A stretch of DNA of 64,000 nucleotides from Escherichia coli (GCF_048403405.1 NZ_CP183129.1), one strand, 5' to 3'; positions 43,319 to 57,001 are shown, numbered from the stretch's first letter. A program made the numbers and translations. Notes: generated by a model not told the origin, from the letters alone.

Positions 43319-43574
43319 CGCCATAGTCGCTAAATCTGATGATTAAGCTCACACAATTTCAACGATTTTTTTAATCTCAAAACCATACAGCATCAAAAAA
43401 TTTGTTGCTGTATGCCACTCTTTGACTCCCTTCACATTCGTCATCACACCACCTGCTGAATGCAAAAATTTCGTTGCTGTGCGGCAAACTTTTTTCCTGT
43501 TTTGTGCCGCTTTTCTCCTGAATACTCGTTCTCAGAACAACTGGATCGTTTAAACATCAGACAGGAGATTTACC

Positions 43575-44243
43575 ATGACGCAATCCATTTTTCAGGCTCA
43601 ACCCTTTGAATTACCTTTTGATCCGCGCACAACTGCACTGGTCATGATCGACATGCAGCGTGACTTTGTCGAAGCAGGGGGCTTCGGTGAGGCACTGGGC
43701 AATGATGTTTCACTGGTACGCACGGCTATCGCACCATGTACAGAGGTGCTGGCAGCCGCACGTCAAAAAGGAATTATGGTTATTCATACTCGTGAAGGCC
43801 ATCGTGCAGACTTAAGCGACTGCCCGCCAGCCAAACTGACGCGCGGCGGAAAAACCTTTATTGGTGAACCAGGACCGATGGGACGCATTCTGGTCAGAGG
43901 TGAAGCAGGTCATGACATCATTCCTGAACTGTACCCGGTGGCAGGCGAACCGGTGATTGATAAGCCTGGCAAAGGCGCGTTTTATCAAACCGACTTACAT
44001 CTGATTTTGCAAAACCACGGTATCAAGACGCTGATAGTTTGTGGTGTAACAACCGAAGTTTGCGTAACCACCACCGTGCGCGAAGCAAATGATCGTGGCT
44101 ATGAATGCATTATCCCGGAAGATTGTGTCGGCTCCTATTTCCCGGAATTCCAGAAATACGCCCTCGAGATGATCAAAGCACAAGGTGCCATTTTCGGTTG
44201 GGTTACTGATTCCAAAGCCATTATTGCAGGTCTGGAAGGCTAA
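43575..44243 (+). CDS. isochorismatase-family cysteine amidohydrolase (RutB / biuret hydrolase / N-carbamoylsarcosine amidase-like); first gene of accessory module A
   Basis: 222 aa; SD AGGAG; VMIDMQRDF Asp motif and the C-G-V-T-T-E-V-C-V nucleophile region typical of isochorismatase-like hydrolases; exact enzyme not determinable. Confidence 0.78.
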   Translation: MTQSIFQAQPFELPFDPRTTALVMIDMQRDFVEAGGFGEALGNDVSLVRTAIAPCTEVLAAARQKGIMVIHTREGHRADLSDCPPAKLTRGGKTFIGEPGPMGRILVRGEAGHDIIPELYPVAGEPVIDKPGKGAFYQTDLHLILQNHGIKTLIVCGVTTEVCVTTTVREANDRGYECIIPEDCVGSYFPEFQKYALEMIKAQGAIFGWVTDSKAIIAGLEG

Positions 44244-44248
44244 CGCCG

Positions 44249-45109
44249 ATGGCACAGATTACGCTTTGCGCATCGTCGTTGGGATATCTTTTCCCGCAGA
44301 ATGAAACGCAAGATTTACGTCTGCATAGCGCTTTTAAACATGCGGTAAATCTGTATTCAGAAGCGGGAACATTCATCACTCTGTTGTGTGCGCAAACGTA
44401 TCTGAATCTCCCTGATGCTGCCAGAGTCTGGCTACCTGAATGTTGGGACTGGCGAAGAGAGATTGCCCATTCCGATCCCGTTCAGTTAACCCCAGGCTTA
44501 CTGCAGACACCTCGCTTTTGTGTGGCTCTCGATAACGCAACGCTCTGGCAGCCGTCATTTGTGGGAGGAAGGCTGACACTTGAGGCGTTCCCTTTGGTTT
44601 TCCAGCACTACCCAACGATGGCATCGCAACGGCTTTTATTTTGTCTGGAGCATAACGTTCAAAGCACATTGCACCTGCCGGATAGTCTCACGCACCAGGG
44701 ATTAGCGATTATGGAACATCCAGATGCGCTGGAACGCCAGGTGCCACAACTGATCGGCTTTGGTAAAGGCTTAACGCCCGATGGAGATGACTATTTGTTG
44801 GGCTATCTGGCAGCACTCTGGTTATGGCAACTCCCTGCACCACTTGCCGATCATCAATACCGGTTGCAGCAGGCAATTGATCAACATGCGCACAACACCA
44901 CGGATATCAGTCGTCATTATCTGGAGCGTGCGCTTCAGGGACATTTTTCAGAACCGATTTGCCAGTTACTCGCACAACTGGTTGGGAGCGCATCGGCAAT
45001 GACAATCGCATCCTGTGCAGAACAGGTCATGCAATTTGGCGCAACGTCAGGAGTAGATTGCCTTGCAGGAATGCTGCATGGCTTTCGAACCCTGAACACC
45101 ATGAATTGA
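44249..45109 (+). CDS. DUF2877-like protein (YahE/YlbF-type)
   Basis: 286 aa; 5 nt after the upstream stop; G-rich loop IGFGKGLTPDGDD; family assignment is by size and gene context (recalled family), not by search. Confidence 0.55.
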   Translation: MAQITLCASSLGYLFPQNETQDLRLHSAFKHAVNLYSEAGTFITLLCAQTYLNLPDAARVWLPECWDWRREIAHSDPVQLTPGLLQTPRFCVALDNATLWQPSFVGGRLTLEAFPLVFQHYPTMASQRLLFCLEHNVQSTLHLPDSLTHQGLAIMEHPDALERQVPQLIGFGKGLTPDGDDYLLGYLAALWLWQLPAPLADHQYRLQQAIDQHAHNTTDISRHYLERALQGHFSEPICQLLAQLVGSASAMTIASCAEQVMQFGATSGVDCLAGMLHGFRTLNTMN

Positions 45110-45203
45110 TTTCAACCTTTTCTCCTGTAGCTCATTTATGGCGCTACACGGGGATGCTTTGCCCGAATTTTACTATCGGGCGGAATGAAACAGGCGTAAC
45201 AGC

Positions 45204-46763
45204 ATGAAAGTTAAATATAAAGTTTTCAGTAATCTTTATCAGGACTCAGTTTCTCTGATGCAGATTTCCGCGCAAATCAGCAAGTTGCCCGGTATTCAAC
45301 AGGCCTCGGTCGTCATGGGAACACCCAATAATCTCGAACAATTGCGCGATGCGGGTCTGGGTAACGAAATCAACGCCAGTCCCAATGATTTAGTGATTGC
45401 AGTCATGGGTGAAGAAGATATTTGCAATGAAGCACTGGCACTGGCCCAGCAACGTCTGACCAGCAAACCCGATGATGAAACGGATAGTGGCATTAAAACA
45501 CCGGAAAATGTCAGCCTGGACATGGCACTGGAAGCCGAACCCGAAGCCAACCTGGCACTCATTTCTGTACCGGGAGACTACGCCGCCGCCGAAGCAATTA
45601 AAGCGTTAAACCTCGGAATGAACGTGATGATGTTCAGCGATAACGTCAGTATCGCGCAGGAAAAATCCATCAAAATACTTGCCCGAGAACGTCAGCGCAT
45701 CGTAATGGGACCTGACTGTGGAACCGCCATTGTTAACGGCATTCCGTTAGGCTTCGCTAATGTGGTGAAACGCGGAGCAATTGGTGTTATTGGCGCGTCA
45801 GGCACCGGGCTACAGGAAGTGACTTGCCGAATCGACCAGCTCGGAGCGGGTATTTCTCAGGCGCTGGGAACAGGCGGGCATGATCTCAGTGAAGAGATTG
45901 GTGGAATATCGATGCTCTTCGCTTTAGATGCGCTGGCGCAAGACGATGAAACTCGCGTAATTGTGCTGATTTCAAAACCGCCTTCACCGATCGTTGCCCG
46001 GACTATTCTGGAGCGTGCCGAGGCTTGTGGAAAACCCGTGGTGGTGAATTTCCTCGGTGCGAATCCGCATGATCTGGCACGTCCCAATATCACTGCCGCC
46101 ACCACACTTGCCAGCGCCGCCGACATCGCTGTGGCGTTACTGAATGCTCAGCCACTTCCGGCTGTCGAGACCGAGATTTCCTGCGCCGATCTCACAATGT
46201 TACAAAACGCCTGTCAGCGCCTGCCAGCCCATCGCCAGGCGATACGCGGTGTTTTCGCCGGAGGAACCTTCTGCTACGAAGCGCAACTTATCTGCCAGCA
46301 AAAGGGATTCCGCGCCGCCTCCAATACGCCAGTTGCGAGTAATCGTACTCTGGCAAATATCTGGCAAAGCGAAGATCACACGCTGATCGATATGGGCGAC
46401 GATGATTTCACCCGTGGCAAACCGCATCCAATGATCGACCCGACTCTGCGCAATCAACGTCTGCTCAACGAACTCAACGACTCACACACTGCCGTCGTGT
46501 TATTCGACCTGGTACTTGGTTATGGCGCTTCCGCTACACCTGCCAGCGAATTACTGGACCAACTTTCACACATCGACATGAATAACGCACCGTTGCTGAT
46601 TGCGCACGTTTGCGGAACGGAAGCTGATCCGCAAATACGCAGTCAGCAGATAAGCGCACTACAAAATGCGGGCATCATCATTGCCAGCAGCAATGCACAG
46701 GCGGCGCTATGGGCCAGCGTCGTTGCGCAGACTCAGTTGCAGAAAAAGGGGCTAAACGCATGA
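45204..46763 (+). CDS. FdrA-like protein (NDP-forming acyl-CoA synthetase / succinyl-CoA synthetase alpha-like fold)
   Basis: 519 aa; shares recalled FdrA blocks: QDSVSLM, LALISVPG-YAA, NVMMFSDNV, VMGPDCGT, GVIGASGTG, DMGDDDFTRGKPHPMIDPTLRNQ. Confidence 0.7.
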   Translation: MKVKYKVFSNLYQDSVSLMQISAQISKLPGIQQASVVMGTPNNLEQLRDAGLGNEINASPNDLVIAVMGEEDICNEALALAQQRLTSKPDDETDSGIKTPENVSLDMALEAEPEANLALISVPGDYAAAEAIKALNLGMNVMMFSDNVSIAQEKSIKILARERQRIVMGPDCGTAIVNGIPLGFANVVKRGAIGVIGASGTGLQEVTCRIDQLGAGISQALGTGGHDLSEEIGGISMLFALDALAQDDETRVIVLISKPPSPIVARTILERAEACGKPVVVNFLGANPHDLARPNITAATTLASAADIAVALLNAQPLPAVETEISCADLTMLQNACQRLPAHRQAIRGVFAGGTFCYEAQLICQQKGFRAASNTPVASNRTLANIWQSEDHTLIDMGDDDFTRGKPHPMIDPTLRNQRLLNELNDSHTAVVLFDLVLGYGASATPASELLDQLSHIDMNNAPLLIAHVCGTEADPQIRSQQISALQNAGIIIASSNAQAALWASVVAQTQLQKKGLNA

Positions 46764-48184
46764 ATACCTTATTTAATCAGCCTTTGAAGGTTGTGAACGC
46801 GGGACTACACAGTTTTGCTGACAATATTCAACATGCCGGGGGAAGCGCAATTGCACTCAACTGGCAGCCACCAGCACAAGGCGATATTGACGCTGGATTG
46901 GATCTGGCATCGTTGCTACGTCATCCACTGGTAGAAAATGCCAACCAAATCGCCATGACACGTTATCTCGAAGCACAGCCCGTGCTGGTAGATGTCATGC
47001 TCGCTAAAGAGGCCATTCCAGCAATGGCTGAACAAAAACGTATTTTGCACTCTGGCCCGCCGATTGCCTGGGAAGAGATGTGTGGTCCGGTAAAAGGGGC
47101 GATTATTGGTGCCATGCTGTACGAAGGTTGGGCCACCAGCCAGCAAGACGCTGAAAACCAGATAAACGCAGGCGAAATCGACCTTGCCCCTTGTCATCAT
47201 TATCACGCGGTTGGCCCAATGGCTGGCATCATCAGCCCGTCGATGCCGTTATGGGTGGTAGAAAACAAAACCAACGGCCACCGTACTTTTAGCAATTTCA
47301 ATGAAGGTCTGGGTAAGGTTCTCCGTTTTGGCGCCAATAACGATGAAGTTCTCAATCGTCTGGCCTGGATGCGCGATGAACTGGCGCCGGCAATGAAAGC
47401 AGCAATCGCACAACACGGCGAGCTGGAACTCAAGCCATTAATGGCGCAGGCGCTGCATATGGGGGATGAAGTTCATAACCGCAATGCTGCCGCTACCGGT
47501 TTGCTGATTAAGCGCCTGCTCCCGGCATTGCTGGCCTGCTCTCTTCCACAGGAACATATCCAGCGCGTCGTGGCATTTATCACCGGTAACGATCACTTCT
47601 TCCTCAATCTGTCGATGGCTGCCTGTAAAGCAATGATGGATGCCGCCGCCAATGTACCGTTCAGTTCAATGGTTACGGTGATGGCGCGTAACGGGGTGAA
47701 TTTTGGTATTCGGCTTTCCGGTACTGGCGATCGCTGGTTCCAGGCTCCTGCCAATGCCGTTGAAGGTCTGTTCTTCCCCGGATTTGGCGTTGACGACGCT
47801 GCTGCTGACCTGGGTGATAGCGCAATTACTGAAACCGCAGGTGTGGGTGGCTTCGCGATGGCGTCGTCTCCGGCGATCGTCAAATTTGTGGGAGGCACCC
47901 CTGCCGATGCCACCAATAACAGCCGTCGGATGCAAGCCATCACCCTCGGCGGTAACCCCGCATTTACACTTCCAGCCCTCAATTTTGCCCCCACCGCAGC
48001 AGGGATTGATGCGCGTAAAGTGACCGATCGCGGCATTTTACCGGTCATCAATACGGGTATCGCCCACAAACAAGCGGGGGTCGGGCAAATTGGTGCCGGG
48101 ATCACCACTGCGCCGATGGCCTGTTTTGTCGCCGCTGTACGTGCACTGGCGGAGATCGTCGCAAAGGAGAACCATCATGGTTAA
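46760..48184 (+). CDS. DUF1116-like protein (YlbE/YahG-type)
   Basis: 474 aa from MNTLFNQPLKVVNAGLHSF; ATG overlaps the upstream TGA (ATGA coupling); size and position match the YahG/YlbE partner of FdrA-like proteins (recalled). Confidence 0.6.
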   Translation: MNTLFNQPLKVVNAGLHSFADNIQHAGGSAIALNWQPPAQGDIDAGLDLASLLRHPLVENANQIAMTRYLEAQPVLVDVMLAKEAIPAMAEQKRILHSGPPIAWEEMCGPVKGAIIGAMLYEGWATSQQDAENQINAGEIDLAPCHHYHAVGPMAGIISPSMPLWVVENKTNGHRTFSNFNEGLGKVLRFGANNDEVLNRLAWMRDELAPAMKAAIAQHGELELKPLMAQALHMGDEVHNRNAAATGLLIKRLLPALLACSLPQEHIQRVVAFITGNDHFFLNLSMAACKAMMDAAANVPFSSMVTVMARNGVNFGIRLSGTGDRWFQAPANAVEGLFFPGFGVDDAAADLGDSAITETAGVGGFAMASSPAIVKFVGGTPADATNNSRRMQAITLGGNPAFTLPALNFAPTAAGIDARKVTDRGILPVINTGIAHKQAGVGQIGAGITTAPMACFVAAVRALAEIVAKENHHG

Positions 48185-49133
48185 GCCACTGGCTGTTGTC
48201 GCGGTTGGCGGCAATGCGCTCATTCAGGACGAGCAACGCAATAGTATTCCCGATCAATATGTTGCAGTGATGGAAAGCGTGCAGCATATCGTTGATATGG
48301 TTGAAGCCGGATGGGACCTGGTGCTAACCCACGGTAATGGCCCGCAGGTGGGCTTTATTCTGCGCCGCTCTGAACTCGCCAGTAACGAAGTTTCTCCGGT
48401 TCCACTTGATTACGCCGTGGGTGATACACAAGGTGCAATTGGCTACATGTTCCAGAAAGCGCTGCATTACGAATTGGCTCGCCGTGGCATAAACAAACCG
48501 GTAATTGCCCTGGTGACACAAACGCGAGTCAGCCCACATGACGATGCTTTCGCCAACCCCAGTAAACCGATTGGCGCGTTTCTCGATGAAGCAACGGCCC
48601 AACAACGCCAACAACAACTCGGCTGGACGCTGATGGAGGACGCCGGGCGTGGTTGGCGGCGTACAGTTCCCTCTCCTGCACCACTGGAAATTATTGAGCA
48701 CGACACCATCGCTCACCTGGTGCGCCAGGGATATCTGGTTATTGCCTGCGGCGGCGGCGGTATTCCGGTGGTGCGAGACGGGCAACAACTGAAAGGTGTA
48801 GAAGCCGTGATCGATAAAGATCTGGCCTCCGCGCTGCTCGCCAGTCAGTTAGGCGCAGATCTGCTGGTGATCCCCACCGGTGTAGAAAAAGTGGCGATTA
48901 ACTTTGGTACACCACAACAACAGTGGCTCGACGCTATCAGCGTTGCCGAAGCGCAAACGCTGTTGCGGGAAGGTCAGTTTGGTGTCGGCAGTATGCAACC
49001 CAAAGTGGAAGCCATTGTTGATTTCATCAATGCCAGCCAGCAACAAGGCAAACAGGCCAGCGGCCTGATTACTTCACCGCAAACCATAAAAGCAGCCCTG
49101 GCGCATCAGAGCGGTACATGGATAACCCTTTAA
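48177..49133 (+). CDS. carbamate kinase
   Basis: 318 aa from MVKPLAVVAVGGNALIQDEQ; SD AAGGAGA; carbamate/amino-acid kinase motifs VVAVGGNAL and IACGGGGIPV; start overlaps the upstream gene by 8 nt. Confidence 0.85.
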   Translation: MVKPLAVVAVGGNALIQDEQRNSIPDQYVAVMESVQHIVDMVEAGWDLVLTHGNGPQVGFILRRSELASNEVSPVPLDYAVGDTQGAIGYMFQKALHYELARRGINKPVIALVTQTRVSPHDDAFANPSKPIGAFLDEATAQQRQQQLGWTLMEDAGRGWRRTVPSPAPLEIIEHDTIAHLVRQGYLVIACGGGGIPVVRDGQQLKGVEAVIDKDLASALLASQLGADLLVIPTGVEKVAINFGTPQQQWLDAISVAEAQTLLREGQFGVGSMQPKVEAIVDFINASQQQGKQASGLITSPQTIKAALAHQSGTWITL

Positions 49134-49149
49134 ATCTCTGGAGAACACA

Positions 49150-49539
49150 ATGACTACAACGCTTTTAGCCGTTAACGGAACGCTGATGCGCGGCCTGGAA
49201 CTCAACCCAAATATGAAAAAAGCGGGCGGTATTTTTGTCCGTGAAGACCGAACTGACGCCCATTACCGGTTGTGGAGTATTAACGATCGCCATCCGGGAA
49301 TGATTCGCGTGAATGAAGGAGGAACACACGTCGACGTAGAAATTTGGCAATTACCGCTGGCCAGTTTTGCCGCTCTGTTAATGAGCGAACCCGCTGGGCT
49401 GGCAATTGGCAAAATCAAACTTGCCGATGGTAGCGAAGTGCTGGGCGTACTGGCAGAAAACTGGCTGACCGAAGGCCAACGGGAAATTACAGAACTGGGC
49501 GGCTGGCGCAAATACACCGGGCATTTTCATACTGTGTAA
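49150..49539 (+). CDS. small GGCT/AIG2-like protein (gamma-glutamyl cyclotransferase-like fold), function unknown
   Basis: 129 aa; N-terminal LLAVNGTLMRG resembles the YGSL/GTLxxG motif of AIG2/GGCT-like proteins; weak, motif-based. Confidence 0.45.
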   Translation: MTTTLLAVNGTLMRGLELNPNMKKAGGIFVREDRTDAHYRLWSINDRHPGMIRVNEGGTHVDVEIWQLPLASFAALLMSEPAGLAIGKIKLADGSEVLGVLAENWLTEGQREITELGGWRKYTGHFHTV

Positions 49540-49564
49540 CGCGCATTTATAAAGGGAACATACT

Positions 49565-50788
49565 ATGCGTAAAAAAGAAGAGAATCTGAATACGGCATCA
49601 GGATTGCGTATTGCCATGATTTTGCTGGGTATTGCCGTCACACCTGTGCTGTTGTCATCCTCAAGCCTCGGCAATCAACTTTCCAGCGGCAGTTTAATTA
49701 GCGTCGTATTGTTAGGCGGCGTCATTCTGACCTTACTTTCAGCCATCACCATTAGCGTGGGAGAAAAAGCCCGCCTGCCAACGTATGGCATTGTGAAATA
49801 TTCGTTTGGCGAAAAAGGGGCCATCGCCATTAACATTTTGATGGCGATAAGTCTGTTCGGCTGGATTGCCGTTACCGCCAATATGTTTGGTCATTCGGTA
49901 CATGACTTACTGGCTCAACATGGACTGGAAGTTCCACTGGCACTGTTAGTGGCGGCTGGCTGTGTCATTTTTGTCGCCTCTACGGCATTTGGCTTTGCCG
50001 TTCTGGGAAAAATTGCCCAGGTTGCCGTGCCGGTTATCGCGCTGGTGCTGTGTTACATCCTCTATGTGGCAACCCATACCGAAGTGGCAGTACCAGCGGC
50101 GATTGTGGAGATGAATACAGGTGTCGCCGTTTCCACCGTTGTTGGCACCATTATTGTGCTGGTTGCCACACTGCCTGATTTCGGTAGTTTTGTGCATAAC
50201 CGCAAACATGCACTGATTGCCGCAGGCGTGACGTTTCTGGTTGCCTACCCTCTGCTCTACTGGGCGGGTGCAACGCCGAGCGCCATTAGTGGTCAGGGAT
50301 CTTTACTGGGTGCGATGGCGGTATTCGGTGCGGTTCTGCCTGCGGCGCTGTTGTTGATTTTCGCCTGCGTCACCGGTAACGCGGGCAATATGTTCCAGGG
50401 CACGCTGGTGGTTTCCACACTGCTTACCCGCTTTCCCAAATGGCAGATTACCGTGGCGCTGGGTATCCTTTCCGCCATCGTAGGCAGTATGGATATTATG
50501 GCGTGGTTTATTCCGTTTCTGCTGTTCCTGGGTATCGCCACGCCACCCGTTGCCGGAATTTATATCGCTGACTTTTTCCTTTATCGCCGTAATGGCTATC
50601 AAGAGTCAGTGTTAGCCCAGGAGTCACAGATTAAAGTGCTGACATTCGCAGCATGGATCATAGGCGCAGCGGTTGGCTTTATGACCGTAAAAGGCTTATT
50701 CACCCTGACGACGATCCCTTCGGTAGACTCGATTCTGGTGGCATGTATCGCGTATGCGATTCTCAGTCGGGCAAGTCAACACCGCTAA
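49565..50788 (+). CDS. NCS1-family permease (CodB-like nucleobase/cytosine-type transporter)
   Basis: 407 aa, multi-TM; C-terminal block IPPVAGIYIADFFLYRRNGY closely resembles the recalled CodB IPPVGGVIIADYLMNRRRYE. Confidence 0.75.
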   Translation: MRKKEENLNTASGLRIAMILLGIAVTPVLLSSSSLGNQLSSGSLISVVLLGGVILTLLSAITISVGEKARLPTYGIVKYSFGEKGAIAINILMAISLFGWIAVTANMFGHSVHDLLAQHGLEVPLALLVAAGCVIFVASTAFGFAVLGKIAQVAVPVIALVLCYILYVATHTEVAVPAAIVEMNTGVAVSTVVGTIIVLVATLPDFGSFVHNRKHALIAAGVTFLVAYPLLYWAGATPSAISGQGSLLGAMAVFGAVLPAALLLIFACVTGNAGNMFQGTLVVSTLLTRFPKWQITVALGILSAIVGSMDIMAWFIPFLLFLGIATPPVAGIYIADFFLYRRNGYQESVLAQESQIKVLTFAAWIIGAAVGFMTVKGLFTLTTIPSVDSILVACIAYAILSRASQHR

Positions 50789-50865
50789 TTCCTGGGTATA
50801 CTCAGGCAATGATTACGGCTGAATCTGGAGAGATTCAGCCACTTTACCACTGACCAGGGAGCCTT

Positions 50866-51771
50866 ATGTTCATCTCAGACGAAACGCTTCGTGTTATTCA
50901 TCTGGTCGCCAGACACCAGAGCATTACCATCGCAGCCGAGCAGTTAAATAAAGTCCCTTCCGCCATCAGTTACACCATCAAGAAAGCGGAAGAGAGCCTG
51001 GGCGTTGAACTGTTCATTCGTAAGGGACGCTATATTGAATTATCGCCAGCGGGAAGTTACTTCATCGAACATAGCAAAACTATTCTTGGCGACCTGGAAG
51101 CATTAAAGCGCAACACAGTGCTGATTCACGATGGTATTGAGCGTGAACTGACAATTGCGGTAAACAATATTATTCCTGGTAATTTGCTGGTGGCATTTAT
51201 TCGAGATTTTGAACGGCAATTCACATCAACAACACTGACGGTAGATCTTGAGGTATACAACGGCTGCTGGGATGCGCTGTACAGTAAGCGTGCTGATCTG
51301 GTCTACGGTGCTCCTCATGCAGTACCAAGTAGTGAAGGCATCATTAGCGAACCGGTCGGACAAATGGAATGGGATTTTGTCGTCAGCCCACTCCACCCAC
51401 TGGCAGCGAAGCGGCATCCATTAGAAAACAGTGAATTGCGTCATTATCCAGCGGTTTGTATCCGCGATACCTCCGTTAACTTCCCCCCGATGCAAGCCTG
51501 GTTGTTGGAAGGACAAAAACCCATTTTTGTTCCTGACTTCGCTACGGCAATCGCCTTAATAGAACAAAACGTCGGTATTGGTTATATTCCACATCATCTG
51601 GCATTGCCGTTATTGAACAGCGGTAAATTGCTTAAAAAGCCAATGCGCGAACATAAACACGCCACCAAGTTATTTCTTGCCGCTCGTTCCGATGGTATGG
51701 GCAAAGCCTGTCAGTGGTGCATAGAATATTTAAGAAACCCGCAATTAATGACACGATTTGTATTTAATTGA
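50866..51771 (+). CDS. LysR-family transcriptional regulator
   Basis: 301 aa; N-terminal wHTH (SITIAAEQLNKVPSAISYTIKKAEESLGVELFIRKGR) and LysR substrate-binding domain; SD GGGAG. Confidence 0.85.
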   Translation: MFISDETLRVIHLVARHQSITIAAEQLNKVPSAISYTIKKAEESLGVELFIRKGRYIELSPAGSYFIEHSKTILGDLEALKRNTVLIHDGIERELTIAVNNIIPGNLLVAFIRDFERQFTSTTLTVDLEVYNGCWDALYSKRADLVYGAPHAVPSSEGIISEPVGQMEWDFVVSPLHPLAAKRHPLENSELRHYPAVCIRDTSVNFPPMQAWLLEGQKPIFVPDFATAIALIEQNVGIGYIPHHLALPLLNSGKLLKKPMREHKHATKLFLAARSDGMGKACQWCIEYLRNPQLMTRFVFN

Positions 51772-51970: not shown

Positions 51971-52816
51971 ATGAATAACATAACCGTAAAAAGTCTGATT
52001 CAAAGCAATTACCCTACACTGCATCAGGCGGAAAAAAAGGTCGCCGACTATATTCTTAGCCACGCACATGAAGTCGTGAACTATAGTGTCACTGAACTAT
52101 CAGAAAAAAGCCATGCCAGTGAAGCGACTATCGTGCGCACCTGTAAGAAATTAGGTTATCAGGGTTATTACCATTTAAAAATTGCATTAGCAAAAGAAGT
52201 CATTAATCCTGACAATAGCTATCCTGATAATACCGATTTTACCGATATAACGTCGCTGGCCACATTTTTATTAAAAAAACAGGCCGAAGATTTAATACAA
52301 TCAACGCAATTTTTTAATGCCGAAGTGCTTGAGTCCATTCTCAAACTACTTGCTAATTGCGATACTATTTTCTTTTTTGCTGCCGGAAATTCAAACCCTC
52401 TGGCCGTTTATGGTGCTTATAAATTCAGCCAACTCGGATTAAAAACCGTTGTTCACGTCAGCCCGGAAATGCAAATTAATGCGGCATATTCTATGGGGAA
52501 ACGCGACCTGGCGATTGGTATTTCTAACTCTGGCAGCACCAACTTAATGGTCGATATCTTTAAAGTGGTGAAAGAGCGCGGTGCCAAATCCGTTTGTATC
52601 ACTAACTATATTAAATCTCCGTTATCAAAACTCTCCACCCATCAACTCAATACCGCGGTCAGCGATAAAATCTTCTTTGAAGCCTTCGACTCCACTCGCG
52701 TTCCGGCAATGGGCGTTATTGATATGCTGGTGCTGTTGTTTATGTATAAAAACAAGGCGCATTACGAGAAATACCGCACCCGTGAAGAGTTTCTCGGCTC
52801 CCGTTTCAAGGGGTAA
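51971..52816 (+). CDS. RpiR/MurR-family transcriptional regulator (HTH plus SIS domain)
   Basis: 281 aa MNNITVKSLIQSNYPTLHQAEKKVADYILSH...; HTH_6 then SIS sugar-phosphate-binding domain. Confidence 0.85.
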   Translation: MNNITVKSLIQSNYPTLHQAEKKVADYILSHAHEVVNYSVTELSEKSHASEATIVRTCKKLGYQGYYHLKIALAKEVINPDNSYPDNTDFTDITSLATFLLKKQAEDLIQSTQFFNAEVLESILKLLANCDTIFFFAAGNSNPLAVYGAYKFSQLGLKTVVHVSPEMQINAAYSMGKRDLAIGISNSGSTNLMVDIFKVVKERGAKSVCITNYIKSPLSKLSTHQLNTAVSDKIFFEAFDSTRVPAMGVIDMLVLLFMYKNKAHYEKYRTREEFLGSRFKG

Positions 52817-52838
52817 AAGGTCATCCTTTCACCCCTTG
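52807..52838. terminator. bidirectional stem-loop between convergent rpiR-like and transketolase genes
   Basis: CAAGGGGTAAAAGG-tcat-CCTTTCACCCCTTG (14-bp stem, one mismatch); the left arm includes the rpiR stop codon. Confidence 0.55.
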
Positions 52839-52845
52839 TGCAGGT

Positions 52846-54843
52846 TTAGCTATTCAGTAGCTCACGCGCCTGCGCCAGGACATTTTCCGGCGTAAAACCA
52901 AAGTGTTTGAACAACACATTCGCCGGAGCAGACTCACCAAAGCTCGTCATCCCAATGACTTTACCATCCAGACCGACGTAGCGTTCCCAGAATCCGGCGA
53001 TGCTGGCTTCTACCGCCAGACGTTTGCGTACAGCTTTTGGCAATACCGATTCTTTGTACGCCGCATCCTGATTATCGAAACGCTCGGTACACGGCATGGA
53101 AACTACGCGAACTTTACGCCCTTCTTCCGTTAACGCTTTTGCGGCGCTGACCACTAACTCAATCTCTGAACCCGCAGAAATGAGGATCATCTCAGGCTGA
53201 CCGTCACAATCACTCAGTACATAACCACCACGCGCAATCTCTGCCAACTGTGCAGCGGTGCGCGGCTGTTGCGCCAGCGGTTGGCGCGTTAATACCAACG
53301 ACGTTGGGCCATCTTTGCGCTCAATCGCCTGTTGCCAGGCCACCGCCACTTCCACCTGATCGCAACCGCGCCAGGTTTCCATATTCGGCGTCAGACGCAG
53401 CGACGCCAGTTGCTCAACGGGCTGATGTGTCGGGCCGTCTTCGCCCAGGCCGATGGTATCGTGGGTATAAACAAACACCGAGCGGATCTTCATCAGCGCC
53501 GCCATGCGCAGTGCATTACGCGCATATTCCATAAACATCAGGAAAGTACCGCCGTAAGGGATAAACCCACCATGCAGCGCAAGACCGTTCATGATGGCCG
53601 ACATACCAAATTCACGCACGCCATAGGAGATGTAATTCCCCGCCGGATTTTCCCCGGTGAAATCAACCGATTTCTGATGGCGAGTCAGGTTAGAGGGCGA
53701 CAAGTCCGCCGAGCCGCCCATCAGTTCCGGCAGCATATCAGCGAAGTGATTGAGGCATTTCTGGCTGACCTGACGGGTTGCCAGCGCCGCCGGATGGGAT
53801 TGCAGATCGTGCACATATTTCTGCATATTCTCGGCCCAGCCAGCAGGCAAATCACCCTTCATGCGACGAGTAAACTCCGCCGCCAGTTCCGGCCACTGCT
53901 TCGCGTAGTCAGCAAACAGTGCATCCCATTCCTGTTGAACCTGCGCGCCTTTCTCGGTCGCATCCCATTCGGCATAAATTTCACCAGGAATTTCGAAAGG
54001 GGCATACGGCCATTGCAGACGTTCACGCACCAGCGCCACTTCATCTGCACCCAGCGCCGAGCCGTGGCAATCGTGGCTGTTGGCTTTATTTGGTGAACCA
54101 AAACCGATAATCGTTTTGCAGCACAGCAGACTGGGCTTATCCGTGACGCTTTTCGCTTCACGCACCGCAGCATCTACCGCTTCTGGATCGTGACCATCAA
54201 CGCCTTCAATGACATGCCAGCCGTAGGCACGAAAACGGGCAGCCGTATCTTCAGCGAACCAGCCTTCTACGTGACCATCGATCGAAATACCGTTATCGTC
54301 CCAGATAGCAATCAGATTGCCGAGCTTCAGCGTTCCTGCAAGACCACAGGCCTCGTGGGAGATCCCTTCCATCAGGCAGCCATCACCCAAAAATAGCCAT
54401 GTGTGATGATCAACAATATTAAAGCCCGGTTTGTTAAATTCTGCCGCCAGCGCCTTCTCCGCAATCGCCATCCCCACCGCATTAGCTACGCCCTGCCCCA
54501 ACGGGCCGGTGGTGGTTTCAACACCCGGCGTATAACCATATTCTGGATGACCCGGCGTGCGGGAGTGGAGCTGACGAAAGTCGCGAATATCATCCATCGA
54601 CAGGTCGTAGCCTGTAAGATGCAGCAAAGCGTAAATCAACATGGAGCCGTGACCGTTCGACTGAACATAGCGGTCGCGGTTAAACCACTGCGGATTTTTT
54701 GGGTTATGACGCAGGTGACGACGCCAGACCACTTCGGCAATATCCGCCATCCCCATCGGCGCGCCCGGATGACCGGAGTTCGCTTTCTGGATCGCATCAA
54801 CACTTAACATTCGGATGGCATTAGCCAGTAATTGTGAATTCAT
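52846..54843 (-). CDS. transketolase (third paralogue, distinct from TktA/TktB)
   Basis: 665 aa [44 protein letters not shown]...; TPP-binding [10 protein letters not shown]; diverged from recalled TktA/TktB (identity not computed). Confidence 0.93.
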
Positions 54844-54893
54844 ACTTCAGCTCTCTCTGTCTGGCGGGCTGAAACCAGCCCGCTAATCTCGAA

Positions 54894-56402
54894 TTAGTTA
54901 GCACAGGCCACTGTCATTTCTGTCGGGCGCGGTCTGCTCATTACGGTTTTAATTTCGTCGCGCAGGATTTGCGATTTGCCGCCAAATATCACCTGTACAC
55001 CGCCATCACCCAGTTTCACTAACCCCGCAGCCCCCAACTCCTTCAGCCGTTTTTCATTCACTTTCTTATCGTCTACCAGCGCCAGCCTCAGGCGTGTTGC
55101 GCAGGCATCCACATCTTCGATATTGTCGAAACCACCTACTGCTTCGATGATTTGGTATGGACGTTCTTCGCGCGTTAATGTGGTTGCAACGGCAATCTCT
55201 TCATCCTCACGTCCCGGTGTTTTCAGATTCAACTTGCGGATCAGTACCCGAAATACGGTGTAGTAAATCGCTGCATAGCCCGCGCCTGCCAGGAACACCA
55301 GATACCACGGCGTGCGGTTTGGCATAACGCCATTCAGTACGAAATCAATAAGACCGCCAGCAAAAGGATGACCAATGTGCACATTCAGGATGTTCATCAG
55401 CACAAATGAAGTGGCATATAAGAAGATGTGAATGATGTAGAGAACCGGAGCTGCAAACAAAAATGCATATTCCAGCGGCTCCGTAATCCCGGTAACAAAT
55501 GTGGTCAGCGCACCGGAGAGTAAAAGGCCTTTAATCAGCGCCTTACGTTCCGGTTTTGCTTCCTGATACATCGCCAACGCGGCGGCAGGTAACGCAAACA
55601 TCATGATCGGGAAACGACCTGTCATAAACAGCCCCGCCGTCAACGGAACACCGTCGCGCAATTGGGCAAAGAACACCGGAATATCGCCCGTCACCAGTTG
55701 CCCGGATTTGGTCATGTAGTCGCCAAAGTTGTAATAAAACGGCACGTTCCAGATATGATGCAGGCCAAAAGGAATCAGCGAACGTTCGCCAACGGCGTAA
55801 ATAAAGGCCGCGAAGTTCGCGTTATGCCCACTGGTCACCAGCGTTGAAAGCGACGCCAGACCTTTTTGTACCGGTATCCACAGCCACGGCAATAAATAGC
55901 CGACAATAATTGCCGCCACCGCCGTAATAATCGGTACAAAGCGTTTTCCACCGAAGAAACCAAGAAACTGAGGCAATTCAATATTGTGGAAGCGGGTATA
56001 GAGCAGATAAACAAAGATGGCGACAATCAAACCGCCAAACACTCCCGTTTGTAACGTCGGTACCCCGAGGATCATCGCATAGTCACCGTTACTGGCTGCA
56101 ACGGACTCCGCGGTAATGCCAAGTTGCGTTCCCATCGTGGCATTCATGATCATGTAACTGATAATCGCTGAAAGTGATGAAGAACCATCACCTGTCAGGC
56201 CAATCACAATACCGACACAAAACAGCAAAGGAAGGTTGGCGAAAATCAGGCCGCCGCAATTCGCCAGCAGCTCAATGTTAAATGAAATCCCGATGGCTAA
56301 AATCAAACCCGCCGCCGGAAGAATGGCGATTGGTAACATCAGAGCAGAAGAAAATTTCTGCAACTTCTTGAAGTTAAACAAGGATGTTATTTTTTTGCTC
56401 AT
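54894..56402 (-). CDS. PTS glucose-family EIICB component
   Basis: 502 aa; EIIC motif GITEPLEYAF; C-terminal EIIB phospho-cysteine motif DACATRLRLALVD; SD CAGGAGAA; no EIIA domain or gene nearby. Confidence 0.9.
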   Translation of the reverse strand: MSKKITSLFNFKKLQKFSSALMLPIAILPAAGLILAIGISFNIELLANCGGLIFANLPLLFCVGIVIGLTGDGSSSLSAIISYMIMNATMGTQLGITAESVAASNGDYAMILGVPTLQTGVFGGLIVAIFVYLLYTRFHNIELPQFLGFFGGKRFVPIITAVAAIIVGYLLPWLWIPVQKGLASLSTLVTSGHNANFAAFIYAVGERSLIPFGLHHIWNVPFYYNFGDYMTKSGQLVTGDIPVFFAQLRDGVPLTAGLFMTGRFPIMMFALPAAALAMYQEAKPERKALIKGLLLSGALTTFVTGITEPLEYAFLFAAPVLYIIHIFLYATSFVLMNILNVHIGHPFAGGLIDFVLNGVMPNRTPWYLVFLAGAGYAAIYYTVFRVLIRKLNLKTPGREDEEIAVATTLTREERPYQIIEAVGGFDNIEDVDACATRLRLALVDDKKVNEKRLKELGAAGLVKLGDGGVQVIFGGKSQILRDEIKTVMSRPRPTEMTVACAN

Positions 56403-56443
56403 TTTTATTCTCCTGTAGGGTATCGAGCAAATAACGGCGACGA

Positions 56444-57001
56444 CTATTCCAGATTGGCGTGGCGCTTAAACAGTTCACTTTCCGGCGCACCACTTTCAGC
56501 AGCCATCTTCATCACTAATGCATCGGCAATCACCAGCAAAGCTTGCTCATACAACGACGCCATCGGCTGTGCCGAGCGGAAAACAGAATCTTTTTGATTT
56601 TTGGAAGGGGCATTGATTTGCACGATGACGTCGACAAACTCGGTGATAGTGGCGTGTCGATTCGTGGTTAACACCGCCACAGCGCCGCCAAGCTGACGTG
56701 CTTTTTTCGCCAGTGCCACCAGTTGTGCTGTCTCACCGGAAGCGGAAGAAACGATAAACAGATCGCCAGGCCCAAAGTTCGGCGTAATGGTTTCCGTCAG
56801 AAAGTAAACCTCTTTTCCCATATGCATCAGGCGCATGGTGAAGGCTTTCATGGAAAAGCCGGCGCGTCCCAGGCCATAGCAGAAAACGCGCTGGCTTTGC
56901 TGAATAGCGTCGATCAATTTGGTGCAGTCATCCTCACGGATAGAGTCCTTAACGAAGGTTAATTCATTGATGATCTCAGTGATGTACAGCTTTGCGTCCA
57001 T
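56444..57001 (-). CDS. SIS-domain sugar-phosphate isomerase (6-phospho-3-hexuloisomerase-like)
   Basis: 185 aa from MDAKLYITEIINELTFVKD (SD AGGTG upstream; the alternative start at 57013 adds 4 aa); single SIS domain with GLGRAG and SSASGET motifs. Confidence 0.72.
   Translation of the reverse strand: MDAKLYITEIINELTFVKDSIREDDCTKLIDAIQQSQRVFCYGLGRAGFSMKAFTMRLMHMGKEVYFLTETITPNFGPGDLFIVSSASGETAQLVALAKKARQLGGAVAVLTTNRHATITEFVDVIVQINAPSKNQKDSVFRSAQPMASLYEQALLVIADALVMKMAAESGAPESELFKRHANLE

Follow-up and report, generated by a model that had tools for sequence, protein, structure and literature searches.

The window analyzed here, a 64,000-nucleotide stretch of Escherichia coli DNA (GCF_048403405.1, NZ_CP183129.1), contains at positions 43575 to 51771 of the + strand eight co-directional, closely packed open reading frames (ORFs), for which we consider a role in the catabolism of triuret or a related oligo-urea. 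The first encodes a predicted TrtA-type cysteine hydrolase of the isochorismatase type (ORF1, 43575..44243, 222 amino acids (aa)) and is followed by genes for an AllH-like (DUF2877) subunit (ORF2, 44249..45109, 286 aa), an AllF/FdrA-like subunit with a succinyl-CoA-synthetase-alpha-like fold (ORF3, 45204..46763, 519 aa), an AllG-like (DUF1116) subunit (ORF4, 46760..48184, 474 aa) and a carbamate kinase (CK; ORF5, 48177..49133, 318 aa). The last three encode a free-standing, Leu-type AH_C domain protein (ORF6, 49150..49539, 129 aa), a CodB-like permease of the NCS1 family (ORF7, 49565..50788, 407 aa) and a LysR-type regulator (ORF8, 50866..51771, 301 aa). From ORF1 to ORF8 the intergenic gaps are 5, 94, -4, -8, 16, 25 and 77 nucleotides (nt); ORF4 starts within the stop of ORF3 and overlaps ORF5 by 8 nt, and these two overlapping pairs suggest translational coupling. 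Longer mechanical starts were discarded in favor of 46760 for ORF4 and 48177 for ORF5. The DNA is a 100% match over 8.5 kb to several human E. coli isolates, and in a 100%-identical genome RefSeq also has the eight genes that the initial annotation had recognized, named in order cysteine hydrolase, AllH-family protein, FdrA, YlbE-family/DUF1116, carbamate kinase, allophanate hydrolase-related, cytosine permease and LysR-family.

Protein families and active-site residues

ORF1 had initially been described as an isochorismatase-family amidohydrolase resembling RutB or biuret hydrolase; the family stands, and the nearer relative is the triuret hydrolase TrtA. Its best match in the Protein Data Bank (PDB) is Herbaspirillum TrtA (6XIX, 270 bits, 58% identity), followed by BiuH (234-237 bits, 53.5% identity) and RutB (105 bits), and it scores under the NCBIfam cutoffs for both BiuH (279.8 bits, cutoff 370) and RutB (111.9 bits, cutoff 377.95). 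The catalytic triad of TrtA is D24/K129/C162, its binding residues are E72, K132 and Q202, and six positions distinguish it from BiuH: F35, N41, A134, E160, Y187 and I205 in TrtA versus Y, Y, S, D, T and V (PMC7948467). To follow these residues we used 80 orthologous loci retrieved via ORF1 orthologues from a one-genome-per-species collection, the best 80 of 319 TrtA-type loci. All of the catalytic and binding residues are kept in ORF1 and in 80/80 orthologues, and ORF1 is TrtA-type at 6/6 discriminating positions and BiuH-type at 0/6; five of the six are invariant across the orthologues, and position 134 has Ala in 73 of them and Ser in the other 7. The orthologues are at least 67% identical to ORF1 and to one another and 54-62% identical to TrtA, and thus form a distinct, tightly conserved TrtA-like subfamily. 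Judged by scores and residues together, ORF1 is assigned to the TrtA (triuret hydrolase-like) type and not to RutB or BiuH.

Some members of this subfamily lie in clusters of the hydrolytic triuret/biuret type. In one locus (L079) an allophanate hydrolase (839 bits) and a BiuH with BiuH residues (79% identical to Rhizobium BiuH) precede the ORF1 orthologue, in another (L070) the orthologue accompanies a BiuH 73% identical to that of Rhizobium, and in a third (L066) it stands between an allophanate hydrolase (802 bits) and an AtzE-family amidase (727 bits). The ORF1 orthologues found beside BiuH or allophanate hydrolase (69-71% identical) belong to loci that lack AllFG. This biuH/atzF association is absent in E. 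coli, and 71/80 loci have AllFG and CK instead. That the TrtA slot of the hydrolytic pathway is filled by the ORF1 subfamily is the strongest argument for triuret, or a compound close to it, as the substrate.

The labels FdrA, DUF1116, DUF2877, carbamate kinase and LysR, all given in the initial annotation, were upheld by NCBIfam and Pfam profile searches of each protein. ORF2 matches PF11392 (AllH/DUF2877, E 5e-27), ORF3 the NCBIfam FdrA model (497 bits, cutoff 433) and the FdrA structure 3DMY (290 bits), ORF4 PF06545 (AllG/DUF1116, E 9e-99) and PDB entry 3CLQ (405 bits), and ORF5 both TIGR00746 arcC (365.8 bits, cutoff 358.25) and NF009007 (375.4 bits, cutoff 266); 3DMY and 3CLQ (DUF1116) are further orphan structures from the families of this system. 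The likeness drawn earlier to fdrA-ylbE-ylbF-ybcF and to yahEFG-yahI is borne out by identities of 26-48.5%, with the gene order of yah: ORF3 is 41% identical to AllF and 42% to YahF, ORF4 48.5% to AllG and 46% to YahG, ORF2 26% to both AllH and YahE, and ORF5 39% to AllK and 48% to YahI. By these values the ORF2-ORF5 set is best placed as a third E. coli paralogue, about equally far from the all and yah sets. The proposal that such FdrA/DUF1116/DUF2877 trios act as carbamoyltransferases has since been demonstrated for the paralogue, AllFGH having been shown experimentally in 2024 to be oxamic transcarbamylase (OXTCase) and AllK to be a catabolic carbamate kinase (PMC11326118, PMC9843812).

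Among the family-invariant positions, 90/125 in ORF3 and 100/158 in ORF4 are common to both E. coli paralogues, while 7 in ORF3 and 13 in ORF4 are invariant within the subfamily and differ from both, a pattern that fits conserved chemistry on a different substrate. His225 of ORF3 (Arg in AllF and YahF) was tried as a subfamily marker and rejected, as it is not among the invariant subfamily-specific residues. AllH is the fastest-evolving and least conserved component (25-60% identity); some lineages do without it, and it was not found within 10 kb in 14/71 modules, including all six Mycobacterium loci (L068, L071-L073, L078 and L080), four from Caballeronia (L039, L040, L044 and L053) and L006, L014, L020 and L060; in the AllH-less modules allF directly abuts the hydrolase gene.

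ORF6 had been labeled GGCT-like, a label that came down to a weak GGACT match (E 0.0025) and was dropped; its specific family is Pfam AH_C (E 8e-42), with the fold of the C-domain of allophanate hydrolase. The protein covers only positions 472-595 of the 600-position allophanate hydrolase model and lacks the N-terminal amidase-signature domain. It is 98% identical to the orphan PDB entry 5C5Z, deposited as 'Glutamyl-tRNA amidotransferase', a name that appears to be a misnomer, and aligns with the C-domains of allophanate hydrolases from Granulibacter and Kluyveromyces. The C-domain of allophanate hydrolase reportedly has been proposed to decarboxylate N-carboxycarbamate via His492, and we take the His of the GAH[LM] motif in the C-domain to be this proposed catalytic His492 of the K. 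lactis enzyme. The motif His is present in 4/4 fused allophanate hydrolases compared and is replaced by Leu in ORF6 and in all 55 of its orthologues, which have invariant polar residues of their own (N9, R14, N21, E32, D46, H48, E80 and K88). An ordinary detached allophanate-hydrolase C-domain is ruled out by this replacement, and homology to the carboxybiuret decarboxylase TrtB is ruled out as well, TrtB being of the AtzH/HpxZ family.

A scan of 1.8 billion representative proteins for AH_C domains found GAH in long, allophanate hydrolase-type proteins and NGTLM in standalone ones, the 'AVNGTLMRG' type being a large, mostly free-standing family. The domain also occurs fused to CK (P0003, in a hydrolase-AllF-AllG-[CK-AH_C]-UT module, with fragments P0066 and P0104), fused, in either orientation, to hydrolases of BiuH type (P0012, and P0017, which is 74% identical to BiuH; mostly in streptophyte algae), and in a triple fusion of AH_C, BiuH and a TrtA-like domain (P0077). 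The AH_C-BiuH fusions are mostly algal and hence without an operon, and the single long prokaryotic contig is fragmented and uninformative. Fusion to ureide hydrolases indicates that ORF6-type proteins work with hydrolases independently of AllFG, and the simplest reading is that they would act on the N-carboxylated product of the hydrolase, allophanate or carboxybiuret. The change from His to Leu may then reflect a substrate with a neutral ureido far end in place of the second carboxylate of N-carboxycarbamate. As an observation in its own right, the algal AH_C-BiuH and AH_C-BiuH-TrtA-like fusions (P0077, P0017, P0156-P0162) come from Chlorokybus, Klebsormidium and other streptophyte or green algae, which implies a eukaryotic triuret/biuret route using a Leu-type AH_C protein.

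Distribution, transporters and regulation

The component counts in the 80 loci are 80 for the hydrolase, 71 for AllF, 69 for AllG, 63 for CK, 56-57 for AllH, 55 for AH_C, 49 for the NCS1 permease and 48 for the LysR gene, and the gene order is mostly that of E. coli. These loci were found in Enterobacterales, Vibrio, Photobacterium, Shewanella, Aeromonas, Avibacterium and Dyella, and also in Caballeronia, Paraburkholderia, Neisseriales, Pseudovibrio, Mycobacterium, metagenome-assembled genomes (MAGs) of Chloroflexi and one Desulfotomaculum MAG. The core of hydrolase, AllF, AllG, CK and AH_C is conserved across several phyla, so that the neighborhood conservation looked for within Enterobacterales extends well outside the order, and the cluster is a widely distributed mobile module. 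Because the same set and order recur in about 50-70 of the 80 loci and in several phyla, the arrangement goes far past chance expectation. In Avibacterium gallinarum a second, more distant AllF/AllG pair lies upstream of the main module (L020:2738-8759), with a LysR gene and a c18-type permease of its own.

In E. coli K-12 the spacing between metE and ysgA is 39 bp; in the window strain about 14 kb is inserted between the two, with the eight genes first and then rpiR, tkt1, a ptsG-like gene and hxlB. The eight genes correspond to locus tags APECO1_2632-2639 and ECOLIN_RS22025-22060, the former being part of the known tkt1 island (APECO1_2632-2646), which was found in 70-94% of phylogroup-B2 extraintestinal pathogenic E. 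coli (ExPEC) in a 2012 study that catalogued the genes (PMC3349570). A 2026 paper on strain BEN2908 lists the island as 'GR 29' and speculates on pyrimidine use, the eight genes being merely listed (PMC12928451). As these two papers just list the genes, the earlier remark that no characterized pathway has this gene set holds. The cluster is present in 1559/5426 complete E. coli genomes (29%), and a copy of about 94.5% identity with exactly the eight genes and without the tkt1 part is carried on 82 conjugative plasmids (78 from Escherichia and 4 from Klebsiella), many of them from chickens and including IncF plasmids of avian pathogenic E. coli (APEC). Since the plasmid copies consist of exactly these eight genes, the boundaries drawn initially coincide with those of a genuine mobile unit that is complete in itself.

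The second module of the tkt1 island occupies 51971-57001 of the window on the opposite strand (RpiR-family regulator, tkt1 transketolase, PTS IIBC and 6-phospho-3-hexuloisomerase), and the GC content falls to 0.38 at about 51.5-52.5 kb, at the joint between the two modules. The island looks composite, because the plasmid copies hold the eight-gene module alone. In Nissle 1917, small hypothetical genes and a tssD pseudogene lie between metE and hxlB (L087:42749-44456); these additions are absent from the window-matching strain, so the island varies at its metE end.

ORF7 scores 145.7 bits against the NCBIfam cytosine permease model, under the equivalog cutoff of 326, and 84.5 bits against PDB CodB (7QOA). 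The earlier description as a CodB-like NCS1 permease therefore holds at the level of the superfamily and does not extend to CodB itself; ORF7 is presumed to import the substrate. The permease slot varies among the loci, with NCS1 in 49 and a multi-pass membrane protein of about 530 aa in 23. The latter lies 3' of the TrtA-type hydrolase gene and is often duplicated (e.g. L051:10666-12258; also in L056, L065, L066, L069, L070, L076, L077, L079, L082-L084 and others). Searches of Pfam, NCBIfam and PDB found no relative of it, and we take it as a probable, so far unannotated family of transporters for compounds like triuret. A urea ABC transporter of Urt type, whose UrtB and UrtD exceed their equivalog cutoffs, lies directly upstream in Rahnella and other loci; in L022, L026, L027, L030 and L070 it is complete and stands immediately before the hydrolase gene of the module. 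This recurrence of urea-type transporters fits oligo-urea substrates, urea as a product, or both. Several Urt loci have a GntR regulator upstream, and it belongs to the protein cluster also seen in the loci from Chloroflexi. A metagenomic locus (L089:1246-7300) combines hydrolase, AllF, AllG, a CK-AH_C fusion and a UT urea channel (PF03253), and lacks AllH and NCS1.

The 256 bp 5' of ORF1 were aligned over 12 Enterobacterales genera. A repeat search located on the + strand an inverted repeat of T-N11-A type, CATACAGCATCAAA / TTTGTTGCTGTATG (43384..43414), a candidate LysR recognition site whose core CAGCATCAA...TTG is conserved in the 12 upstream regions. A second conserved site, ATGCAAAAnTTTCGTTGCTG (43460..43492, + strand), is a direct repeat of the first at 69-nt spacing with invariant or near-invariant columns in the 12 genera, and is a candidate LysR activation site over the -35 position. 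Downstream on the same strand follow a candidate -10 hexamer, GAATACT (43520..43526), in the conserved block CTGAATACTC, and a Shine-Dalgarno sequence, AGGAG (43563-43567), upstream of ORF1. Generic scans for sigma-70 promoters and terminators gave nothing above shuffled controls, which for the promoter fits activator dependence, and a scan for Rfam riboswitches gave a single sub-threshold match (E 0.78). ORF8, the regulator that had been noted at the operon, is of the LysR family by NCBIfam profiles; it scores 286 bits against PunR and 214 bits against AllS, both under cutoffs, and is 34% identical to YahB. In Vibrionaceae the LysR gene lies upstream of the hydrolase gene. The upstream layout is typical of a LysR-activated promoter, and we infer that ORF8 would be an inducer-dependent activator of the operon.

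Proposed pathway and alternative readings

The substrate had initially been sought among nucleobase-, hydantoin- and ureide-like compounds; the TrtA-type active site and the locus context favor the ureide class, with triuret or biuret, and not the other two. Both are chains of urea units and can originate from oxidized uric acid. What is observed comprises the family to which each protein belongs, an active site of TrtA type, the conserved module and the fusions described above; on this basis we think it rather probable that the eight genes form a LysR-activated operon that takes up and degrades triuret, or an oligo-urea very close to it such as biuret, with carbamoyl phosphorolysis and ATP formation. 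The NCS1 permease ORF7 would import a triuret-type compound, and ORF1 would deamidate triuret to the N-carboxylated ureide 1-carboxybiuret, with release of ammonia. ORF6 would decarboxylate or hand on an intermediate with an N-carboxy group (either carboxybiuret, giving biuret, or allophanate, giving urea), and the AllF/AllG(/AllH)-like products of ORF2-ORF4 would move the terminal carbamoyl group to phosphate, comparable with the reaction oxalurate + Pi -> carbamoyl phosphate + oxamate. ORF5 would then convert carbamoyl phosphate and ADP to ATP and carbamate, which would decay to NH3 and CO2. The net reaction would be triuret + Pi + ADP -> 2 NH3 + 2 CO2 + urea + ATP, or would yield 4 NH3 and 2 ATP if allophanate were also phosphorolysed, and the route would save energy versus complete hydrolysis.

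Three variants of this scheme can be written. In the first (P1), ORF6 would convert carboxybiuret to biuret and CO2, ORF2-ORF4 would cleave biuret with phosphate to carbamoyl phosphate and urea, and ORF5 would form ATP, which would account for both growth on biuret and the urea transporters. The second (P2) would consist of two phosphorolyses in succession down to carbamate, with 2 ATP and all four nitrogens freed; it would leave ORF6 without an evident role. In the third (P3), carboxybiuret would itself be phosphorolysed to carbamoyl phosphate and allophanate, and ORF6 would take allophanate to urea, with the same net reaction as P1; the substrate of phosphorolysis would be anionic, like oxalurate, and that of ORF6 the same as in the BiuH fusions. 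We favor P1 or P3 over P2. The parts of the scheme that we infer are which substrate is used, whether ORF6 acts before or after ORF2-ORF4, which of biuret, carboxybiuret and allophanate donates the carbamoyl group, and how the operon is regulated.

A growth phenotype bears on this proposal. In Biolog PM3 plates, biuret can serve as the only source of nitrogen for E. coli Nissle 1917 but not for K-12 (PMC7924626). The island was found on the Nissle chromosome with all eight genes intact, and Nissle and the window genome share one protein accession for the hydrolase. To our knowledge E. coli has no BiuH, which makes the cluster the obvious candidate for this growth.

Several points weigh against the oligo-urea proposal. 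E. coli usually lacks urease, and the favored variant would lose half of the nitrogen as urea. The identity between ORF1 and TrtA is only 58%, within a subfamily of its own, so that the enzyme could act on another, related ureide. The link to biuret growth is a correlation over two strains, and commercial biuret may contain triuret; moreover, Herbaspirillum TrtA hardly acts on biuret, so that the Nissle phenotype would require either an AllFGH-like enzyme that accepts biuret or a triuret impurity. ORF6 is without the His proposed to be catalytic in the C-domains of allophanate hydrolases, so that its own catalytic role is uncertain. The E. coli OXTCase is reported to need all three subunits, yet AllH is missing from 14/71 modules. 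Lastly, a 2025 study of nitrifiers read the same co-location of genes as separate triuret and oxalurate pathways (PMC12625717).

Of the other explanations, the one that survives best is that the module handles some other triuret-like N-carbamoyl amide (e.g. of guanylurea, carboxyguanidine or formylurea type, or another urate oxidation product) by the same architecture of hydrolase, carbamoyl phosphorolysis and ATP formation, which we regard as unlikely. The tightness of the ORF1 subfamily, set apart from TrtA as it is, the remodeled site of ORF6, the unannotated permease family that accompanies the hydrolase, and the reuse of the architecture with a different hydrolase in the yah cluster would all agree with such a substrate. 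However, every first- and second-shell residue that separates TrtA from BiuH is kept in ORF1, its subfamily holds the TrtA position beside BiuH and AtzF, and the growth of Nissle on biuret fits oligo-ureas.

Less probable still is a second oxalurate pathway, in which ORF1 would deamidate an oxaluramide-type precursor (or a ring-opened parabanate derivative) and ORF2-ORF4 would be an OXTCase isozyme feeding ORF5. Membership of ORF2-ORF4 in the AllH, AllF and AllG families next to a carbamate kinase speaks for it, as do the RefSeq name of ORF2, 'oxamate carbamoyltransferase subunit AllH family', and the reading of allFGHK beside biuH/trtA as oxalurate catabolism in the nitrifier paper (PMC12625717). 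However, the F and G subunits share no more than 41-48% identity with AllF and AllG and the set is equidistant from the Yah set, no allantoin genes lie near the locus, the TrtA-type active site is family-wide with orthologues in canonical trtA-biuH-atzF clusters, and the AH_C fusions and urea transporters indicate allophanate or urea chemistry.

We consider very improbable, and reject on profile and PDB scores and gene context, the salvage and degradation of pyrimidines put forward in the BEN2908 paper (PMC12928451), with CodB-like import of cytosine- or uracil-like bases, a RutB-like hydrolase freeing carbamate and CK handling it: ORF7 is CodB-like and ORF1 has a weak RutB match (112 bits), but ORF1 scores 105 bits with RutB in PDB versus 270 with TrtA and 237 with BiuH, the annotated neighborhood of the E. 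coli locus holds no rut genes, the ring-opening enzyme RutA occurs in 0/80 loci, ORF7 reaches 145.7 bits against a CodB cutoff of 326 and is elsewhere swapped for unrelated permeases including urea-type ones, and carbamate kinase acting on free carbamate would use ATP rather than make it.

The oligo-urea proposal carries a larger claim, which we advance more tentatively and hold to be possible but somewhat short of probable: the cluster would be the first phosphorolytic, energy-conserving oligo-urea pathway, would contain two new enzymes, an AllFG(H)-family carbamoyltransferase and a Leu-type AH_C decarboxylase of N-carboxy-ureides, and would feed B2 ExPEC and E. coli with APEC plasmids on the products of urate oxidation. 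The carbamoyltransferase would cleave biuret, carboxybiuret or allophanate with phosphate and so allow substrate-level ATP formation.

Relation to known systems and biological meaning

The allFGHK operon of E. coli K-12 (Kim & Kim 2022, 2024) contains the same three protein families and a carbamate kinase; presumably the chemistry is also shared, an N-carbamoyl amide being cleaved with phosphate and the carbamoyl phosphate so formed being used to make ATP. It differs in gene order (F-G-H-K versus H-F-G-K here), and identities are only 26-48%; the eight-gene cluster lies outside the allantoin regulon, in a mobile island and on plasmids, and adds its own TrtA-type hydrolase, AH_C protein, permease and LysR regulator, and its substrate is probably not oxalurate. 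The yahEFG-yahI(-yahJ) cluster of K-12 shares the order DUF2877, FdrA-like, DUF1116, CK, has the LysR gene yahB nearby (the relative of ORF8 noted above) and provides the marginally closest CK paralogue (48%). It also has a dedicated hydrolase, but YahJ is of the amidohydrolase superfamily and not of the isochorismatase type, and the cluster lacks the AH_C protein and the NCS1 permease. K-12 yahB-yahJ (L003) may be a third substrate-specific version of this type of pathway.

The triuret/biuret pathway of Herbaspirillum and Rhizobium (TrtA, TrtB, BiuH and AtzF; Tassoulas 2021, Esquirol 2018) begins with a TrtA-type enzyme with the same active-site residues, relatives of ORF1 occur in such hydrolytic clusters, and ORF6 has the fold of the AtzF C-domain. 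The E. coli module, however, lacks BiuH, the AtzF amidase domain and TrtB (AtzH family), and has AllFG(H)-like proteins and CK in their place, so that its route would be phosphorolytic and ATP-yielding and not purely hydrolytic. In comammox Nitrospira and ammonia-oxidizing archaea, isochorismatase-type ureide hydrolases are likewise paired with AllFGHK, sometimes with codB; those loci keep BiuH and/or AtzF, whereas the E. coli-type module has the TrtA-type hydrolase only, with a free AH_C protein (mSystems 2025, PMC12625717). In the literature searched we did not find the combination described as one pathway, with transcarbamylase and CK replacing BiuH and the AtzF amidase and a remodeled AH_C protein retained. 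The finding is not categorically new, because the parts belong to known families, AllFGH/AllK and TrtA are characterized and the cluster is catalogued.

If the proposal is correct, it would give a function to eight genes that are carried by most B2 extraintestinal E. coli and by virulence plasmids of poultry pathogens and have been catalogued since 2012, and would account for the use of biuret by Nissle 1917 in a species that is not known to have a biuret hydrolase. The newly discovered AllFGH transcarbamylase family would gain a second class of substrate, and the orphan structure 5C5Z and the disputed C-domain of allophanate hydrolase would gain a role. The nitrogen of triuret and biuret would be mineralized with a gain of ATP, which would bear on the turnover of fertilizer impurities and on the nitrifier loci with the same pairing. 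The proposal appeals because the module is widespread and associated with ExPEC and APEC, because a link to urate oxidation is possible and because it can be tested directly. Triuret occurs in human urine, and peroxynitrite turns urate into triuret (PMC7948467); products of urate oxidation could thus feed E. coli in urine, in inflamed tissue and in uricotelic birds.

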